A stretch of 13,932 nt of DNA, taken from UHGV virus genome UHGV-0136738; one strand, given 5' to 3'. Numbering within the stretch: the stretch's first letter is position 1; each line of letters starts with the position of its first letter. Below, piece after piece: positions 5,682 through 13,269 of this stretch. The notes beneath the pieces are model-generated. The model ran no database searches, was not told the DNA's origin, and saw only the letters and a program-made list of their open reading frames with translations. The translations under genes were made by a program, and so were the position numbers. The DNA is from a virus.

Positions 5682-7082
5682 TTAACCGTCCACATTAAAG
5701 TCGATACGAGTGATATATTTACTACCCCACGCGGAGTCCGCCTGCGGGATAATGGCGTAGTTATCTACGGCGGGTACGTTTACGGTAGACCCATCGGAAT
5801 AGGTAATGTCGATACTTGTCGCGCCGTTCATGGTTACTTTTGCGGATGCCGTGGTCCGGGTCACAGATGAAGAACCAGTTACTATCGGGGACGTGGCATG
5901 GCCTGATGGTTCCATTTGTATCAACGCGATATTGAACCCGCTGACACCATCCCCCGTGAAGGTGAGGGAGTTAGACGACGACAACATGTTTATCTGCGAA
6001 TAAATCAATCCGCCAGAGTCGTTAGTGTCCGCGGACATTGAAACGTGATACCACCCACCACCGAGATTACTTACAAACGACCTTGAGGTGTCGCCTGATA
6101 TCAAATCACCAGAGGCTAAGTCAACATAGGCATACTGGAAATTATCTAAAGCGGCTGGGTTGCCGATGGTTACCGCTGCTGACTGGTACTCATCTGCTTT
6201 CATAATAGCACTAATAGAGTATCTTGTTTCTTGTTCTGGGGCCTCTGGCTGGTTTATATAGTGGCTCCCTGATACCGACGTTGCGGCTAATTTAGCGGCG
6301 TAAGTTTCTTGGAATAACATCAAAGAACTCGCCGTGGTTGTTGTTCTGGTGCGTGAAAATGATGTAGATAGTAAGTTGTTAGAGTGTTCTACCACGTTGG
6401 TTGAAGCGCTTTCCGGCGGCACACGCCCAACAGCAACCCCATCGATAAACGTAAGGGGCCATTCATCGGCAGCGGACGGCACAAGATTGCCGTTTCGGTT
6501 GATGTAGTAAACCTGCGGCCCGTCATACACAATGCGGTTATCTAGTGTAGACGCCAGAAGGTTAATCGGTGGATAACCCGCGGGACCTTCGTTACTCCAG
6601 ATGCGGGGGAACGTAGTTTCGTAGTTCGCGTATATCTTAAGGAAACTGCCCAGACAGTCGCCGTAGCAACCATACAAATCCGGCAGATTGTTAATCAGGC
6701 ACTGGTTCTCAAGGTCCTGGAACGGCGATTTCTCAGCGGTTGCCGTGAAAGTAATCGTCCAGTTAATGCCATCTTCGGTGGACTCCGCGATGGTTGACGT
6801 AATGGTTACCTGGTAATCCTCGATACCCATGCCGAAGTCGTGCGCCATCCAGAAACTGGACGCGCCGCCGTCTACTTTCTCAAGAAACGCGAGGAAAGTC
6901 TGTCGTCCAAGCGCGGAGGTGATAAGCGTCACACTGACAGGGAACACGTCATAATAGGTGTCACGCCCCTGACGGACGCCACCACCCGCTAAATCAACAC
7001 TCCAGACGTTGTTACGTCTGGTCATCGAGTAGCCTTTCGACACAATAGGCTTAAGGCTACGTGGAAAAAATAAGTCACCCAT
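5682..7082 (-). CDS. minor tail protein (distal tail protein position), putative
   Basis: 466-aa ORF whose ATG at 7082..7080 overlaps the TMP stop codon as TAATG, indicating translational coupling. It is the first gene after the tape measure, where the distal tail or minor tail protein usually sits. Confidence 0.5.
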   Translation of the reverse strand: MGDLFFPRSLKPIVSKGYSMTRRNNVWSVDLAGGGVRQGRDTYYDVFPVSVTLITSALGRQTFLAFLEKVDGGASSFWMAHDFGMGIEDYQVTITSTIAESTEDGINWTITFTATAEKSPFQDLENQCLINNLPDLYGCYGDCLGSFLKIYANYETTFPRIWSNEGPAGYPPINLLASTLDNRIVYDGPQVYYINRNGNLVPSAADEWPLTFIDGVAVGRVPPESASTNVVEHSNNLLSTSFSRTRTTTTASSLMLFQETYAAKLAATSVSGSHYINQPEAPEQETRYSISAIMKADEYQSAAVTIGNPAALDNFQYAYVDLASGDLISGDTSRSFVSNLGGGWYHVSMSADTNDSGGLIYSQINMLSSSNSLTFTGDGVSGFNIALIQMEPSGHATSPIVTGSSSVTRTTASAKVTMNGATSIDITYSDGSTVNVPAVDNYAIIPQADSAWGSKYITRIDFNVDG

Positions 7083-9355
7083 TATTTGAACCCCGGCGCG
7101 TTTCTTGTGGCCTTGCGGGCCTTGCTAATCTTACTGTTACTGTTCTGCAAAGAGGCGGCGACCTGTTCCTCGATGATGATGCGCAGACGCCCTTCATCAT
7201 CCTGCTCGGTGGACACGTTGCCGATTTGCGAACTCGTGTTGTTTACGATGGTAACATTAGATGGGCCGGAAGAAGACCCGTTTTGGCCCATAATCTCTTT
7301 CATTTGTTGCGCGGTGCGTACTCGCGACGCCCCCGCGGGCATAATTACCTCAGGTTTACCGCGTTCGGCGATGGTGGAAGCCTGCCCCGCGGATAACTGG
7401 CCCCCCTGTTCACGCGCGGACCTGATAGCGGAAACCTGCGCCATACCGGCCCCAACAGCAGCGGCAGCGGCTACTGGTGCAAGGAATGGCCCAACAACCG
7501 GGATAGCAGCTGTTGACTTATACGCTTCAATAGCTGCAGTATACGTAGCGATAGTGGCCTGCACAATCGCGAACGCCTTATAAGCGCCGGATGCTTCACC
7601 TAACGCGGATCCAATGTTAGAAGCCATGTTACCAAAAGCTGTTGCCGTTGCGTCAGCACGCTTGGTTGCGTACTGCTCGTTGATGGCGCTAAGCGCAGCC
7701 TGATATTGCTTCTCGCTAATAAGACCTTGTTCTCGGTACTTATCGGCTACCGCCAGTTTCTGCTGTTCCTGAATATCCAGAAGCTCAAGCTCGGTGGCGT
7801 TCTGGCCCATAATCTGAGCCATGAAATCCTCACCTTTCTGTTGCTTATCCTGGGCTTCTTTCTGGCGTTTATCCAGTTCATCCTGCCGTTTTTGCCCTGC
7901 TTCAAGAACAATGGCGGTTTTAGCCTGTTCGTACTCTTTTAACGATAGCGCACCCTGACTGTAGAACTCTTTTGCTTTAGCCAGTTTCTGCTGCTCCTGG
8001 GCGTCAATAGCCTTTAACTCGTCATTGTTCTGACGGGCCAAAGTGTCGAGGTAATCTTGTGCCTGATTACGCAATTGTTCTGCTTTCTTAGCGGCTGCTT
8101 TTGCTGCTTTATCGTCGGTTTTCCCCGTCCCACCAGTCCCGCCTTTTTTATCAACAAGGCTGGCTAAGTCGATTTCTTGCTTCTTGCGCTCGTCATACTG
8201 CTTGCGCTGTTCCTCAATTTCTTTCTTACGCTGCTTAGACCTGTCGGTAATGGCCTGGGACTCCGCCTCTGCGCGTTTTATGCTGGCGGCATATGCGGCG
8301 TCGGCCTCCGCAGTCAGGTTTTTAAATGTGAGCGCTGCCGTTTTGCTCGGGTCAAACACGTCAGCAAGAGTCTGGCCTAACGCTACGGCATAATCATCAA
8401 TGCGCTGAAACCATGCAATAACCTCGTGGAATGTCTGCTGAATGTCAGGCAACCACTCACGGATAGCGTCAGGGATTGTGCCAAGCGAATCTGACATGTT
8501 CGCCGATTTGTCTTCTGTGTCGTACGCCAAATCATTCAAGGCGTCAGAAATAAACTTGAACGACTCATTGAACAGCGTCGCCCAATCCTGGAGTGTGGAT
8601 GCTATCTCATTAGACGCAATGGCATCGGTGAGCGCAGTTACTGCGTCTTCGGCCGCCGCGGCTTGCTCACCTACGGCGTCGCCAAAACCAGACTGCGCTA
8701 CCGCAAGAACAAGACCGTCAAATGAGTCAGCAAGGCTCGACAACTGCCCGTCAAGGGTCTTCGAGCGCGTCTCCATCGCTCCGGCGAAATCAGTATTGCC
8801 GATGTTTAGCAGGTATTTCTGAATCTCTTCGGAGTTCTTCTTGACCGTGGTCGTTACGCCACGGAACGTGAACGAAACTGTGTCCGCCTGTTGGGAAGAC
8901 TTGATGCCGAACTCTTTTAAGCGCTCGAATTCAAATGTACTGGCGTCAGCAACTGCCTCAATCATCTGGTTAAGGTCTTTACCCATCGCAGCCGCAGTGT
9001 TGCCGTAGGAGATTAACGCCTCTTTGCTGGGGTTAAGCCCGAGCGCCACGAGCTTGGTAAATCCCTCTACAGCCTGGTTAAGCCCGTATGGTGTTTCTTT
9101 AGCAAACTGTTGCAGGACGCTGAAAGCCTTTGCCGCGTTCTCGGCGCTTCCGGTCATTGTGATGAGTCCGGAGTTCAGCTTATCGAAGTTGCGCTGAGAG
9201 TCCACCAGCGCGCTGAACACCTGTTTAGCGGTTTCCAGACTGACAACGGCAGCTGCCGCCGCCCCCGCCGCCTTGGTAAGCCCGTTCAGTTGAGATGTTG
9301 TTTTATCGACGCCGGTCGAAGATACTCGTACTATCAAACTAGCGGTATCAGCCAT
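7082..9355 (-). CDS. tail tape measure protein
   Basis: Long ORF, 757 aa from ATG at 9355 (AAGGT SD about 8 nt upstream; the ORF track extends to TTG at 9370). Ala-rich N-terminus, a long charged coiled-coil centre with two internal repeats (residues about 449-484 and 526-560), a hydrophobic Ala/Gly/Val-rich segment near residues 595-650, and location directly after two chaperone ORFs. Confidence 0.85.
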   Translation of the reverse strand: MADTASLIVRVSSTGVDKTTSQLNGLTKAAGAAAAAVVSLETAKQVFSALVDSQRNFDKLNSGLITMTGSAENAAKAFSVLQQFAKETPYGLNQAVEGFTKLVALGLNPSKEALISYGNTAAAMGKDLNQMIEAVADASTFEFERLKEFGIKSSQQADTVSFTFRGVTTTVKKNSEEIQKYLLNIGNTDFAGAMETRSKTLDGQLSSLADSFDGLVLAVAQSGFGDAVGEQAAAAEDAVTALTDAIASNEIASTLQDWATLFNESFKFISDALNDLAYDTEDKSANMSDSLGTIPDAIREWLPDIQQTFHEVIAWFQRIDDYAVALGQTLADVFDPSKTAALTFKNLTAEADAAYAASIKRAEAESQAITDRSKQRKKEIEEQRKQYDERKKQEIDLASLVDKKGGTGGTGKTDDKAAKAAAKKAEQLRNQAQDYLDTLARQNNDELKAIDAQEQQKLAKAKEFYSQGALSLKEYEQAKTAIVLEAGQKRQDELDKRQKEAQDKQQKGEDFMAQIMGQNATELELLDIQEQQKLAVADKYREQGLISEKQYQAALSAINEQYATKRADATATAFGNMASNIGSALGEASGAYKAFAIVQATIATYTAAIEAYKSTAAIPVVGPFLAPVAAAAAVGAGMAQVSAIRSAREQGGQLSAGQASTIAERGKPEVIMPAGASRVRTAQQMKEIMGQNGSSSGPSNVTIVNNTSSQIGNVSTEQDDEGRLRIIIEEQVAASLQNSNSKISKARKATRNAPGFK
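7691..8026 (-). repeat. internal duplication within the tape measure gene
   Basis: Peptides ELKAIDAQEQQKLAKAKEFYSQGALSLKEYEQAK and ELELLDIQEQQKLAVADKYREQGLISEKQYQAAL lie 76 codons apart. Their DNA cores gccagtttctgctgctcctg (7980..7999) and gccagtttctgctgttcctg (7752..7771) are 19/20 identical. Confidence 0.6.
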
Positions 9356-9680
9356 GATTTCTACCTTCAAAGATTGCTTCTAGGCCCATGATAATGTCTA
9401 TCTCAAACAGGCTAAGCTGTTTCTGTGTGACGTCGAGATAGGCTTTCAGGTCTTGCCACGTTACGGATTCTCTTGCAAACAATACTACCGCGTCATCGCG
9501 CACGTGTCGCGTAAACTTAATGTCGCAATACGTTTCAAAGGTGGATATGAAAAGGGGCGGGCATTCTGGCCCACCCCGTCGCGCTGCACGTTTTTTCTTA
9601 TCGATTACACCCATTGCGATAAGCGCCTGTTCGTGACCGTCGGCTATAGAATCAAATTCTCTGATTTTATGCTTATCCAC
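9348..9680 (-). CDS. tail assembly chaperone, T-like distal ORF (possibly made as a G-T fusion by -1 frameshift)
   Basis: 110-aa ORF from GTG at 9680 with no convincing SD. The same frame is open upstream to 9731 and overlaps the end of the 139-aa ORF in the -1 frame. Its TGA at 9350..9348 lies just inside the TMP start (ATGGCTGA). Confidence 0.5.
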   Translation of the reverse strand: MDKHKIREFDSIADGHEQALIAMGVIDKKKRAARRGGPECPPLFISTFETYCDIKFTRHVRDDAVVLFARESVTWQDLKAYLDVTQKQLSLFEIDIIMGLEAIFEGRNHG

Positions 9681-9712
9681 GAACTCATAGGTGGCGAACC
9701 TGTACAGCGCGT

Positions 9713-10132
9713 CTACTTTTCCTGCAATGCTTTACGCTCAGCATTATGGAACGCTGCCACCTGAGTACCAAGCCCCTTGAACTGGTCTAGAAGCTTATTA
9801 AACGCCTCTTTGGAGAACGGTTCATCATCAAAGCTCCAGCCGTTGACGACTTCCGCAGCGAGTTGGCGGTTCAGGTCTTCTGCCAGTTCATTAATCGCCA
9901 GGTTATATTCAGTATAGTCGCCGGATTCTTTGGCGGCTTTTTCGAGTTCTTCAAAACGTGCAAGCCCGCGACGGTACGCAATAATGAAAGCGCGACCCGC
10001 TTTAACGGCGACATCGGCATCAGGGCTTACTACGTTAAGCCACTCCCCCGAGTCTTCACCGTTCGGCAGGAGAATCGGCATCTTCTTGCCTACCATCGCT
10101 TTCTCTTCAAAATAAAAATCAGAAAGTTTCAT
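9713..10132 (-). CDS. tail assembly chaperone (G-like)
   Basis: 139-aa acidic ORF immediately upstream of the T-like ORF and the tape measure gene. ATG at 10132 has SD AAAGGA about 8 nt upstream. Confidence 0.6.
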   Translation of the reverse strand: MKLSDFYFEEKAMVGKKMPILLPNGEDSGEWLNVVSPDADVAVKAGRAFIIAYRRGLARFEELEKAAKESGDYTEYNLAINELAEDLNRQLAAEVVNGWSFDDEPFSKEAFNKLLDQFKGLGTQVAAFHNAERKALQEK

Positions 10133-10239
10133 TCTTTAATCCTTTGGTTAAGAGGTTACTGGTTAAAGGAAATGCGCCAGACGGGAACCACCCGCTTTTC
10201 GTGTGCGACACTAGGCGCAAAATTATTCTAACACACTAC

Positions 10240-10268
10240 TTGCACACCCCAATATAATAGCGTACTAT
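10240..10268 (+). promoter_or_regulatory. candidate sigma70-like promoter for the plus-strand cassette
   Basis: TTGCAC (10240..10245), 17-bp spacer, TACTAT (10263..10268), about 30 nt upstream of ATG 10300. A perfect TATAAT at 10253..10258 overlaps but lacks a properly spaced -35. Weak matches only. Confidence 0.2.
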
Positions 10269-10299
10269 TCACTTACACCAACAATGAAGGGGTTTTAAA

Positions 10300-10491
10300 A
10301 TGTCCAGTTTACCAATTTCCTTAATCCTGTTTGCACTGCTCGCGTACTTTGCGCCTTTTTTAGTCGCCTATTTCCGTAACCATAAAGCAAAGCTGGCGAT
10401 ATTTATGGCTAACTTATTTCTCGGGTGGGTTCTGTTGCCGTGGGTATTCATTTTAATCTGGGCTTGCAACTCGAACGTGAAAGAGAAGTAG
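10300..10491 (+). CDS. small membrane protein resembling the superinfection-immunity (Imm_superinfect) family
   Basis: 63-aa ORF with SD GAAGGGG 7 nt upstream of ATG. Two predicted transmembrane helices. Sequence YFAPFLVAYFRNHKAKLAIFMANLFLGWVLLPWVFILIWAC fits the pattern recalled for that family (YF-P, A-x-R-x-H, IF-x-NL-x-LGW, W, LIWA). Confidence 0.5.
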   Translation: MSSLPISLILFALLAYFAPFLVAYFRNHKAKLAIFMANLFLGWVLLPWVFILIWACNSNVKEK

Positions 10492-10529
10492 GCTACTATA
10501 AGACAAATCCTAAACACGAGGAAGTAAGC

Positions 10530-11270
10530 ATGGCCCAGAAGAAAATAACCGACGAGCAGTTACAGGAAGAATTGAACGCCGGGGTGAAGAACGTAGATAT
10601 CGCCCGTAAATACGGCATCTCAGACCGCGTTATCCGAATCCGTAAAGCGAAGCTGGCTAAGAAAGGCGTAGGCCACGGGCGTGACGTAAGCCACCTTGTA
10701 CCAGACGGCTACAAGATTAAGGGTACGTCGTCTCTGGTGGACGAGTTCGGTAACACTAAGTTGCAGTGGGTTAAGACAGACACCGATGCCGAACGTCAGG
10801 TTGAGTTGATGAAAGCCGTAGTCGAAGGCATGAAGTCGGAGATTACTCCCGTTCCGCCAGTTAAGGCCGCCCGGGCTAAACGTGACGACAAGCTGCTTAA
10901 CCTGTACACCGTGTCTGATTTCCATCTCGGTATGTTAGCCTGGGCTGACGAGAGCGGCGACGACTGGGATATGAAAATCGCGGAGGACTTATTTTCACGA
11001 TGGTTTGATGCCGCGTTTCAGAAAGCACCGGATGCAGGTACGGGGGTTATTAATCTTCTTGGCGACTTAGCGCACTTCGATAGTCTTGATGCCGTTACAC
11101 CAGCAAGCGGTCATGTCCTTGACGCCGACACGCGTTACCAGAAACTTGTTCGCTATATGATTCGCATGGTACGCCGTGTTGTCGATATGGCACTGGTTAA
11201 ACATAAAACTGTTCGCTTGCTTATCGTGCAAGGGAACCACGACGAATCCGGGATGATTTGGCTGGCGTAG
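10530..11270 (+). CDS. HTH domain fused to N-terminal half of a calcineurin-like (SbcD/Mre11-type) metallophosphoesterase, ending at an in-frame TAG
   Basis: ATG at 10530 with strong SD GAGGAAG 5 nt upstream; the ORF-track GTG at 10425 overlaps the preceding gene. Residues about 17-42 (GVKNVDIARKYGISDRVIRIRKAKLA) look like a helix-turn-helix. Phosphoesterase motifs I (VSDFHLG), II (GDLAHFD) and III (GNHDE) follow. TAG at 11268..11270. Confidence 0.7.
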   Translation: MAQKKITDEQLQEELNAGVKNVDIARKYGISDRVIRIRKAKLAKKGVGHGRDVSHLVPDGYKIKGTSSLVDEFGNTKLQWVKTDTDAERQVELMKAVVEGMKSEITPVPPVKAARAKRDDKLLNLYTVSDFHLGMLAWADESGDDWDMKIAEDLFSRWFDAAFQKAPDAGTGVINLLGDLAHFDSLDAVTPASGHVLDADTRYQKLVRYMIRMVRRVVDMALVKHKTVRLLIVQGNHDESGMIWLA

Positions 11271-11660
11271 ATGTTCAGCACACTGTACGACAACGAGCCT
11301 CGTGTGTTCGTCGATACGTCGCCGGATGTGTATAAGATGGTGCAACACGGCAAAACGACGCTGTTCTTTCATCACGGGCATAAGGCACGCTTCGACGCAA
11401 TCGAGCCTGTTATGATTGCCAAGTTCCGCAAAGCGTTCGGCGAGAGCGTCTACAGCTACGCGCATGTAGGCCACCTCCACCACCAGAAGATTGTCGAAAG
11501 CCGTAACATGATTGTCGAACAACACCGCACCTTAGCCGCTAAAGACGCATACGCCTCCCGTGGCGGATGGATGTCAGGCCGCGGGGCAAATGTAATTACT
11601 TATAGCGCAGAATATGGCGAGGTCGCACGTTTAACTATTTCACCGGAGATGCTGGGATGA
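11271..11660 (+). CDS. C-terminal half of the same metallophosphoesterase (motifs IV-VI), same frame as the upstream ORF
   Basis: ATG at 11271 directly follows the TAG and is in the same frame (11271 minus 10425 is divisible by 3). Contains FFHHGH and AHVGHLHH, matching the downstream His and GHxH motifs of the fold. Ends with ATGA overlap into the next ORF. Confidence 0.65.
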   Translation: MFSTLYDNEPRVFVDTSPDVYKMVQHGKTTLFFHHGHKARFDAIEPVMIAKFRKAFGESVYSYAHVGHLHHQKIVESRNMIVEQHRTLAAKDAYASRGGWMSGRGANVITYSAEYGEVARLTISPEMLG

Positions 11661-11887
11661 CTTCAAAATACGACAGAACTATGACAAATATACACGGCAG
11701 CACGATGACTGTTGATGTCTATGATGTCCTCCGCGCTTTCGACATCCGAGACCCGGCGCTGCAGCACGCATTGAAAAAGTTGCTGTGTATGGGTCTACGC
11801 GGGCACAAAGACACAGGCACGGACTTAGAAGAGGCAATAGAAAGTCTGGAGAAGTTACGAGAGTACCGGAGTAATATTGATGAGTGA
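11657..11887 (+). CDS. hypothetical protein (76 aa)
   Basis: ORF whose start overlaps the upstream stop as ATGA, consistent with translational coupling inside the cassette. No motif recognised. Confidence 0.45.
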   Translation: MTSKYDRTMTNIHGSTMTVDVYDVLRAFDIRDPALQHALKKLLCMGLRGHKDTGTDLEEAIESLEKLREYRSNIDE

Positions 11888-11894
11888 AAGTATT

Positions 11895-12056
11895 ATGAAA
11901 ACAATATATGTAATCAGAATATACGATGAAGAATGGGATGAGTGGGTAGACATTTACGCCGTTGGAAGTAAGGAAGAGGCGTCAAAAGAAATGACAGAAA
12001 GAAGTGACCGAGGCCAGTTAACTAACTTCTATGAAATGCCATTCAAAAGTGAATAA
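11895..12056 (+). CDS. hypothetical small protein (53 aa), AT-rich
   Basis: ATG 11895 to TAA 12054..12056, translation MKTIYVIRIYDEEWDEWVDIYAVGSKEEASKEMTERSDRGQLTNFYEMPFKSE. Uses A/T-rich codons (ata, aga, aaa) unlike neighbouring genes and has a weak SD. Ends 4 nt before the terminator hairpin. Confidence 0.3.
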   Translation: MKTIYVIRIYDEEWDEWVDIYAVGSKEEASKEMTERSDRGQLTNFYEMPFKSE

Positions 12057-12060
12057 GAAA

Positions 12061-12080
12061 AAGGCCCCTTTCGGGGCCTT
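12061..12080. terminator. Rho-independent terminator hairpin, probably bidirectional
   Basis: Perfect 8-bp stem aaggcccc / ggggcctt with loop tttc, followed by agttttatg on the plus strand and preceded by gaaaaa (a T-run for the minus strand). Lies between the plus-strand cassette and the minus-strand major tail gene ending at 12085. Confidence 0.65.
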
Positions 12081-12084
12081 AGTT

Positions 12085-13269
12085 TTATGCGTAGGTGATA
12101 CGCTGAATAACGATAGACGACTGATATTGGTTGCCCGTAGCCTGGCCTTCAATAGACTGAGTGATAGACTCTGGGCCGCCAATCTCTGGTGTAACTGCGG
12201 TCAACTCCGCACGTTTCAAACTGAAAGACATAGCCCCGTTTACCCCCGCCAGAATAGAGTTAATCTCTACCTGTTGCTCGTTGATAAACTTCTGAATCAT
12301 AGCCATGTCGTACAGTTTGCCCGCGATGGAAAAGGTGTTAGCCGCACGGCCTCGTTCAACGAACGCTACGTTACTGTTGCCGAGTTCGAACTGGGCGGAA
12401 GCACCGTTATCGTTGGTGATGGTCAGCGTGTCGCAACGCAACGGCGACGTACCATCGAACACTGACACATCTACAGATGAGAACGGCTCATCGGTAAACG
12501 TCACCTGAGAGAAATCAGAGCCAGCCGGAGGTGCAGTAAGAATCTCCTGGCTCAGGCCGATGAACGGGAAGCTGCCGGTTACCATCGCGTTAACCGCCTG
12601 CTCGATAGTGAAGCCGGAAATCTCAACTCCTTTGGTAAGCATGTACGCGTCAGGGTTTCCGCACTGGCCTTTGAACCAGGTCAGGATAGAGAACGTTTTA
12701 CACGCGTTACCGGTTTCCAGCTTGTCGCCGGTTTCCAGCTTGTCGCCGGTTTTAGCGTCAGTCGTTACAGTTTCTGTGGTAAGCGTGTGCTGAATACCTG
12801 CGCCTGTTACGACAAGAGCGGAAACTTCGGTAACGATGAATGGCTTCGCGTTATCGCCTGTCAGACCGGTGAACGCGATAAGGTCGCCAACTTCAACGCC
12901 GTCGGTAATGAAGCTACCGGTTGCGCGGGTGAACGTTTTACCAACCGGCGCAACCGTAATTTCCGCGCCAGTAATCTCGACGCCAGCCTGCCACGTAGAT
13001 GTCATCGCACCTGCGAGGAAATCATCCTGACTTTTTGAGCTAAGCTCGATGGCGTATTCCCCGGTTACCTGTTTGTTACCTGTGCGGATAGACGTGGTTT
13101 CACGGCTGCCGTCCAGTTCGTTTGACGTCAGTGCGTCACGTGTTACCGCGGGAACACCGCCAGTATTGCGCAACGGCGACCATACCGGGGAAGTCGGTGT
13201 TACGCCCGGGGTAGTTTCCGCCACATAGAATTGCGCGGTATTCGCGCCCTTAAAAGGAGTTGTAGCCAT
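12085..13269 (-). CDS. major tail (tube) protein, putative
   Basis: About 394 aa from ATG at 13269 (SD AGAGG 8 nt upstream; the ORF track starts at GTG 13275). Ser/Thr/Gly/Val-rich beta-type composition. Lies after a tail-terminator-like gene, is followed by a terminator, and precedes the chaperone/TMP genes. Confidence 0.5.
   Translation of the reverse strand: MATTPFKGANTAQFYVAETTPGVTPTSPVWSPLRNTGGVPAVTRDALTSNELDGSRETTSIRTGNKQVTGEYAIELSSKSQDDFLAGAMTSTWQAGVEITGAEITVAPVGKTFTRATGSFITDGVEVGDLIAFTGLTGDNAKPFIVTEVSALVVTGAGIQHTLTTETVTTDAKTGDKLETGDKLETGNACKTFSILTWFKGQCGNPDAYMLTKGVEISGFTIEQAVNAMVTGSFPFIGLSQEILTAPPAGSDFSQVTFTDEPFSSVDVSVFDGTSPLRCDTLTITNDNGASAQFELGNSNVAFVERGRAANTFSIAGKLYDMAMIQKFINEQQVEINSILAGVNGAMSFSLKRAELTAVTPEIGGPESITQSIEGQATGNQYQSSIVIQRITYA
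12710..12753 (-). repeat. perfect 18-bp tandem duplication inside the major tail gene
   Basis: Plus-strand unit ggtttccagcttgtcgcc occurs twice in tandem (12712..12729 and 12730..12747), followed by a partial third copy ggtttt. It encodes the in-frame peptide repeat TGDKLETGDKLETG. Confidence 0.9.

Follow-up and report, generated by a model that had tools for sequence, protein, structure and literature searches.

A -1 frameshift at an A_AAG tetramer set directly against a stop codon is predicted to join the tail assembly chaperone genes of a Kagunavirus

UHGV virus genome UHGV-0136738, analysed here as a stretch of 13,932 nucleotides (nt) that we call the window, is a Kagunavirus (Guernseyvirinae) in which two overlapping open reading frames (ORFs) for tail assembly chaperones, one G-like and one T-like, stand directly before the tape measure gene. 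Here we propose that a -1 translational shift at the tetramer A_AAG, with which the sense codons of the G-like ORF end, yields a G-T fusion of 261 amino acids (aa) and 29.7 kDa, a reading to which we assign a probability of about 0.85. As judged from the sequences of related phages, the signal conserved in this family is the A_AAG tetramer together with the stop codon that abuts it, and not a heptamer of the lambda type. The frameshift is already known as an annotation, and is classed here as such because near-identical orthologues carry the same joined annotation; what is added is the anatomy of the slip site.

The evidence for the fusion is the following: (i) The two ORFs, which like the tape measure gene lie on the minus strand of the window (Table 1), overlap in a -1 relation. 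The 3' end of G reads ...GCA TTG CAG GAA AAG TAG, and the T-like frame, whose last upstream stop is the TAA at 9734..9732, is open from 9731 to the TGA at 9350..9348. The overlap thus amounts to 16 nt when only sense codons are counted (9731..9716) and to 19 nt when the G stop is included, and the frame of T is -1 to that of G (GGA AAA GTA at 9722/9719/9716 against GAA AAG TAG at 9721/9718/9715). This is the arrangement given in a preliminary description of this DNA, made from the window alone, which had placed a probable programmed -1 shift at GGAAAAG and noted that this heptamer is one substitution away from the lambda site; the lambda sequence (GCG GGA AAG in NC_001416) bears the latter point out. 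The heptamer by itself is nevertheless not beyond chance, with 3 occurrences in the window against 1.66 expected; what marks this one out is where it stands and how well relatives conserve it. The site also departs from the canonical X_XXY_YYZ pattern, only the A_AAG half of G_GAA_AAG being canonical. Among the structural genes of the window, G alone ends in TAG (1 of 10).

(ii) The tetramer and the adjacent stop are invariant, or nearly so, among relatives. We compared 9 GenBank loci, 80 IMG/VR loci and several metagenome contigs, with T domains 37-98% identical to that of the window; of these about 90 related loci, which give 70 distinct sequence contexts, 83 with both ORFs were counted, and entropies were computed on 32 lineages more than 8% apart. 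The -1 arrangement is kept in every locus that retains both ORFs (about 90), down to 37% identity in the T domain. The G ORF ends in NNA_AAG_TAR in 82 of the 83 loci, and the stop abuts AAG in 69 of the 70 contexts, the lone exception (L055) reading GCA AAG TTA TAG, with the stop one codon later. Even the most distant relative (L091, 37% identity) has an adjacent stop, in A_AAA_AAA_TAG. Across the 32 lineages the entropy is zero from -4 to +1 (A AAG TA; numbering relative to the first base of the stop). The codon that precedes AAG does vary over the 83 loci (GAA 64, GCA 12 with L055 included, TCA 2, GTA 2, AAA 2 and GGA 1), and its third base is always A, though Glu, Ala, Ser, Val and Gly all have synonymous alternatives. 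The stop itself is TAG in 53 contexts, TAA in 17 and TGA in none, and it is followed by A in 54, C in 15, T in 1 and G in none; this preference for UAG or UAA with A or C as the next base would be in keeping with a weak context for termination. Canonical heptamers do occur at the same position as natural variants: the GGA-AAG locus is that of Raoultella phage RP180 (L024), itself a Kagunavirus, which has the exact lambda heptamer G_GGA_AAG, while L070 and L071 have A_AAA_AAG and L091 has A_AAA_AAA. The programmed shift proposed in the preliminary description is therefore supported by the comparative data and by the deposited fusions discussed below, and its signal has to be redefined, from a near-lambda heptamer to A_AAG plus the stop.

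(iii) The coding constraint changes frame exactly at the slip site. In the 32 lineages, variability peaks at third positions of the G frame upstream of the site, and at third positions of the T frame from +13 on. In agreement with this, tblastn homology in 494 phage records begins at residues 1-5 of the T frame, and K5, V6, A8 and L9 of that frame are invariant in an alignment of eight protein sequences, which together argue that the T frame is translated from the overlap itself.

(iv) No T start that is both conserved and preceded by a Shine-Dalgarno (SD) sequence was found in the about 90 loci, nor did any homologue with a clear independent T start and SD turn up among them. The GTG at 9680, taken as the T start by the ORF finder, was correctly described as the only start of the T-like ORF and as lacking an SD: its anti-SD pairing amounts to only -2.2 kcal/mol, where the ATG of G (AAGGA ahead) reaches -5.4 and that of the tape measure gene (9355, SD GAAGG) -5.0, and it is not conserved, being GTN or ATC in relatives, with a third-position entropy of 1.68 bits at +37. 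The first ATG in the T frame does not come before 9614, and SD pairing is poor or badly spaced at CTG 9707, GTG 9680 and ATG 9614 alike. Only one candidate start is conserved, a Leu codon (9707..9705) for which 29 of the 32 lineages have CTG and the other 3 have TTG.

This Leu codon is the basis of a different account, in which T would be a separate protein, made by restart or new initiation at CTG/TTG 9707..9705 or at GTG 9680, with no fusion at all. The codon lies at +8..+10, 8 nt past the stop, where ribosomes might in principle restart weakly, and several annotators have chosen it as the T start, many GenBank records giving T as a 119-aa protein from CTG 9707; moreover, Leu codons other than CTG and TTG never occur there, as would be expected of an NTG start. 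However, E. coli initiates very poorly at CTG, and ATG or GTG stands at this position in none of the 32 lineages. An SD at a usable spacing is missing: the closest candidate, an AGGA, ends 11-12 nt ahead of the CTG in the window and is absent from the variants with GCA, TCA or GTA. Separate initiation also leaves unaccounted for the A before AAG, the abutting stop and a GCG that is invariant at a fourfold site, and it runs counter to the treatment of the pair as a fusion in PHROG and in curated records. We consider it improbable.

In the mechanism that we propose instead for the -1 shift at A_AAG, which would be a translational one, most ribosomes would translate G and terminate at its TAG. 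In a minority, the tRNA-Lys on AAG (9718..9716) would slip back by 1 nt and re-pair with AAA (9719..9717), after which GTA GAC GCG CTG... would be read in the -1 frame as far as the T stop, giving ...ALQEK-VDALYRF... Slippage could be favoured if AAG occupied the P site while the A site awaited a release factor: this slow step, typical of a shifty stop, would give the tRNA time to move, and GUA (Val) would be decoded in place of the stop. If the proteins behave as gpG and gpGT of lambda do, the tape measure protein would be coated by G and GT, the tail tube protein would be brought in through the T domain, and the virion would contain neither chaperone. The choice of tetramer is in keeping with what is known from E. 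coli, where A_AAG is the most shift-prone tetramer (PMC4066793) and a single tRNA-Lys serves both AAA and AAG, pairing less well with AAG (PMC4066793, PMC5009743). Sites of the NNA_AAG type are in use in IS1222 and present in B. subtilis cdd (PMC5009743).

The part played by the stop is less clear-cut. In the window, the tRNA-Glu preceding tRNA-Lys could partly re-pair on GGA, with two Watson-Crick pairs and one G:U pair, so that both tRNAs might slip in tandem on G_GAA_AAG; the protein would be the same by either route. A plain tandem slip of the lambda type, with the stop and the 3' GCGCTG taking no part and being conserved through protein constraint only, would be in line with the presence of N_GAA_AAG in 64 of the 83 loci, nearly all with a G ahead, with the exact lambda heptamer in RP180, and with lambda itself, which needs no adjacent stop. 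Yet eighteen loci (about 22%), from several lineages, have GCA, TCA or GTA before AAG (with C, A or G ahead), where P-site re-pairing is essentially impossible, and they keep A_AAG and the stop all the same. Protein constraint does not explain the choice of stop either: the Val read across it is compatible with TGA (through GTG), yet TGA is never found, and GCG and CTG do not vary at their synonymous sites, where 34 other conserved codons do. We therefore regard it as doubtful that the stop and the 3' sequence are mere bystanders. The abutting stop may stimulate the slip, although on this specific point we would give roughly even odds against plain heptamer slippage. The zero spacing between slip site and stop does appear, from the comparisons made here, to be atypical and under selection; it is atypical because lambda has five intervening codons, and because the mean distance from slip site to stop was 26 nt and 36 nt in two surveyed sets of phages (PMC10885494).

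A third account, transcriptional slippage, would have RNA polymerase drop one A or add two within the A run. Such slippage is known at runs of about 7 or more. A few relatives do have longer runs (A6 in L070 and L071, A7 in L091), and slippage might contribute there. The window and most relatives, by contrast, have four A's (GGAAAAG) and others three (GCAAAG, TCAAAG), well below the 7 or more for which slippage runs are considered (PMC3711429), and such a process would leave no role for the adjacent stop or for the G that invariably follows the A's. We give this account hardly any credence.

Downstream of the stop, the element GCGCTGTA has near-zero entropy, synonymous third positions included (GCG in 31 of 31 and CTG/TTG in 32 of 32). 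The exceptional character of this constraint becomes apparent when all 38 conserved four- and sixfold codons of the G-T fusion are considered: in 34 of them the third-position entropy is 1.2-1.96 bits, and in four it is zero, namely Val140 GTA, which overlaps the stop, Ala142 GCG, Leu143 CTG/TTG and the last Gly GGC. The last of these is invariant in all lineages because it overlaps the tape measure ATG (9355..9353), which is fused to the T stop as ATGGCTGA (9355..9348). The constraint on GCG and CTG is thus unaccounted for by protein coding. It could reflect a part of the frameshift signal, since with AAG in the P or A site these bases would be inside the mRNA channel, and it could in part derive from the use of an NTG codon for restart. 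The distant L091, with its canonical A7 site, shows a relaxed form of the element, GCC TTG. No pairing partner for GCGCTGTA was found; a long-range candidate for GCGCUG, the CAGGCGC at about +86 in the window, proved on inspection not to be conserved in relatives.

Several results, to which the conserved Leu codon described above has to be added, weigh against the frameshift. A downstream hairpin was sought with RNAalifold in the 32 lineages over spans from +3 to +150, and only a 3-bp helix of -0.47 kcal/mol was obtained; the folds specific to the window (-7 to -27 kcal/mol) are not conserved. There is no nucleotide-level conservation from -30 to -8 that would indicate an upstream SD-like stimulator, the variation there following the coding period, and an Rfam search of 9300..10200 at E up to 1 gave no match. 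In reporters, A_AAG lacking a stimulator shifted at 0.147%, with a background of 0.112% (PMC4066793). With the bare tetramer so close to background, and with no conserved hairpin, SD or Rfam element, a useful efficiency would have to rest on the effect of the stop or on the 3' element. Stimulation by ribosome collision (PMC6815119) does not fit here, as it requires a slip site 8-10 codons ahead of the stop. In addition, a genome note on a Guernseyvirinae relative left the frameshift uncalled, reporting 'no canonical slippery sequence' (PMC6776780), and we found in the literature no experimental demonstration of the fusion, of a low GT:G ratio as a requirement of tail assembly or of the frameshift for Kagunavirus or Guernseyvirinae, the support being comparative.

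A terminator-like hairpin is present inside T, of the form GGGGTGGGC-CAGAAT-GCCCGCCCC followed by TTTTCATATC, with the stem-loop at 9577..9554 and the T-run extending to about 9544 on the minus strand. It has 9 pairs, of which 8 are G-C, and encodes ..GGPECPPLF.. Its GGGC/GCCC core is mostly dictated by the G-P-x-C-P codons, the Gly being nearly always the rare GGG. The outer pairs co-change in several lineages (AAG/CTT, GAG/CTC, ACG/CGT), with a T-rich run after them, and this extension is absent in Jerseyviruses. The covariation score of 0.213 exceeds the 0.103 of shuffled controls (reached in 0 of 500), but a control slid by +3 scored 0.230. Placed between G and the tape measure gene, the hairpin may act as a leaky attenuator. 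At about 139 nt downstream of the slip site, it was discarded as a frameshift stimulator.

These features could be combined into a more specific scheme, in which A_AAG_UAR_NNGCGYUGUA would form a distinct, structure-free -1 cassette: tRNA-Lys would slip in the P site, a stop in weak context (UAG or UAA followed by A or C) would occupy the A site, and the 3' GCGCUG would act in the mRNA channel as a new kind of stimulator, while the hairpin at 9577..9554 might tune the output of T and the tape measure protein. We put this scheme forward tentatively and consider it, as a whole, rather unlikely.

Comparison with known systems places the window pair close to lambda gpG/gpGT in function and apart from it in sequence. 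Each has a pair of overlapping ORFs immediately ahead of the tape measure gene, and the second ORF is in the -1 frame and has no start of its own; in both, no RNA structure has been detected, and an abundant short chaperone would be accompanied by a rarer fusion. However, BLASTP of the window G against lambda G gives no alignment, and the Pfam families are not the same, those here being Phage_TAC_4 and Phage_TAC_18; lambda has G_GGA_AAG followed by five sense codons before TGA (NC_001416), whereas in the window the stop abuts the shift codon; and the window chaperones open their own transcription unit after a divergent immunity/exonuclease module, instead of directly following the major tail gene. 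Functionally, then, this is a chaperone frameshift of the gpG/gpGT type, which it matches in synteny, frame, missing T start and conservation, and from which it differs in the canonical heptamer and in homology. With the sites of IS1222 (G_CGA_AAG), B. subtilis cdd (A_CGA_AAG) and IS3 (A_AAG) it shares cognate re-pairing at the A_AAG part only, a 5' NNA codon read by a U34 tRNA, and bacterial hosts with a single tRNA-Lys (PMC5009743, PMC4066793). The IS elements nonetheless need a downstream pseudoknot or hairpin (PMC6815119, PMC4066793), while in the window no conserved stimulator was found and the stop directly follows the site. A third parallel, in which the role of the window stop is again a presumed one, is that with shifty stops such as the CUU_UGA of prfB, which have a shift-prone codon in the P site and a slow stop in the A site (concept in PMC5009743 and PMC10885494), the stop next to the shift codon being conserved in the relatives compared here; in the window, though, the shift would be -1 and not +1, there is no upstream SD stimulator, and no autoregulatory logic is known.

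The chaperone assignment draws on Phage_TAC_4, Phage_TAC_18, phrog_15027 and phrog_313. G is matched weakly by Phage_TAC_4 (21.9 bits against a cut-off of 21.1, E 2e-4) and strongly by phrog_15027, 'tail assembly chaperone' (E 7.5e-69, profile positions 1-138 of 259); the T frame is matched by Phage_TAC_18 (E 8.3e-19) and by positions 136-259 of the same PHROG. Since G and T each cover one part of phrog_15027, this profile must have been built from fusion-length proteins. A solved-structure match, 7uek (E 0.0013, 28 residues), was dismissed as spurious.

Annotations of the pair differ from record to record. The region 9300-10200 is 98.8% identical to NRG857CP3 and to the unannotated OZ035734.1, the record nearest to the window, and about 91.6% identical to K1G. 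In K1G, RefSeq ORF22A/22B (YP_009168805/YP_009168804) include a two-piece joined coding sequence (CDS), ORF22B, over the same pair, and joined CDS are also found in fFiEco03 (FE3_024/025, 'frameshift product') and in Pantoea phage AH01 (gp42/43). When the fusions expected from a -1 shift at AAG were built for these three phages and looked up by exact sequence, the proteins with the ..QEK|VDAL.. junction were found deposited as ADA82267.1/YP_009168804.1 (K1G), QNO11663.1 (fFiEco03) and QZA71161.1 (AH01), and the same exact lookup showed an alternative ..QGKV.. junction to be absent from the protein collection. These orthologues have CAG GAA AAG TAG and the same junction as the window, with a T domain 98.4% identical in K1G, and differ in that the window G is of 139 aa and theirs of 138. 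Many other records give T separately, as a 'hypothetical protein' or 'tail assembly chaperone' of 87, 110, 113, 119 or 121 aa depending on the start chosen.

A scan of bacterial genomes gave a single locus (L090) and no further distant relatives. This locus is a 13-kb scaffold (NZ_JACVEL010000023.1) in an assembly of the Bacteroidota species Taishania pollutisoli, with CAG GAA AAG TAG at the end of G and 57% identity in the T domain. It reads like a Jerseyvirus and probably represents contaminating phage DNA in the assembly, not a prophage.

Table 1. Features of the chaperone region of the window
Feature	Position	Strand	Remarks
G-like tail assembly chaperone ORF	10132..9713	-	ATG start; 139 aa, 15.6 kDa; zero-frame product (ORF list, translation)
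Shift site G_GAA_AAG	9722..9716	-	Family-invariant core is the A_AAG tetramer, 9719..9716
G stop TAG	9715..9713	-	Directly 3' of AAG; candidate shifty-stop stimulator
Conserved 3' element GCGCTGTA	9710..9703	-	+5..+12 from first base of stop; includes CTG 9707..9705
GTG taken as T start by ORF finder	9680..9678	-	First ATG/GTG/TTG in T frame; 110 aa
T-like part of fusion	9716..9348	-	-1 frame, from GTA (9716..9714) to TGA (9350..9348); 122 aa
Predicted G-T fusion	join(10132..9716, 9716..9348)	-	261 aa, 29.7 kDa; junction ...ALQEK|VDALYRF...
Tape measure protein gene	9355..7082	-	phrog_1538, E 2.7e-193; directly after T

With respect to the surroundings of the pair, the tape measure gene is only weakly supported by Pfam TMP_3 (39 bits, under the gathering cut-off of 41), and is followed by genes for minor tail proteins and a tailspike. 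Upstream of G lie the divergent immunity/exonuclease module and then the tail tube and terminator genes. In this module, the gene for the DNA repair exonuclease (phrog_704) falls into two pieces, 10425..11270 and 11271..11660, at an in-frame amber TAG (11268..11270, plus strand), the window reading ...IWLA*MFST... and K1G ...IWLAEMFST...; the amber may reflect a nonsense mutation or an error in the sequencing, or else be suppressed in translation. From the exonuclease to the tail tube gene (11657..12085, plus strand) there is only a 76-aa ORF, corresponding to the C-terminal part of the ATPase-like phrog_2452 (positions 150-220 of 235); K1G has, at this position, both a polynucleotide kinase and a complete ATP-binding protein. 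Over 10140..12100, identity to the best full-length DNA matches reaches only about 87%, and the 11657..12085 module appears shortened or mosaic.

The window pair is accordingly to be recorded as G plus a joined G-T CDS, with the coordinates of Table 1. Its family provides a well-sampled natural case of a chaperone frameshift predicted on a minimal A_AAG placed directly against a stop, the wider interest of which is modest. Should a stimulating effect be established for the stop or for the 3' GCGCUG, this would explain the reports of 'no canonical slippery sequence' and would improve frameshift predictors.

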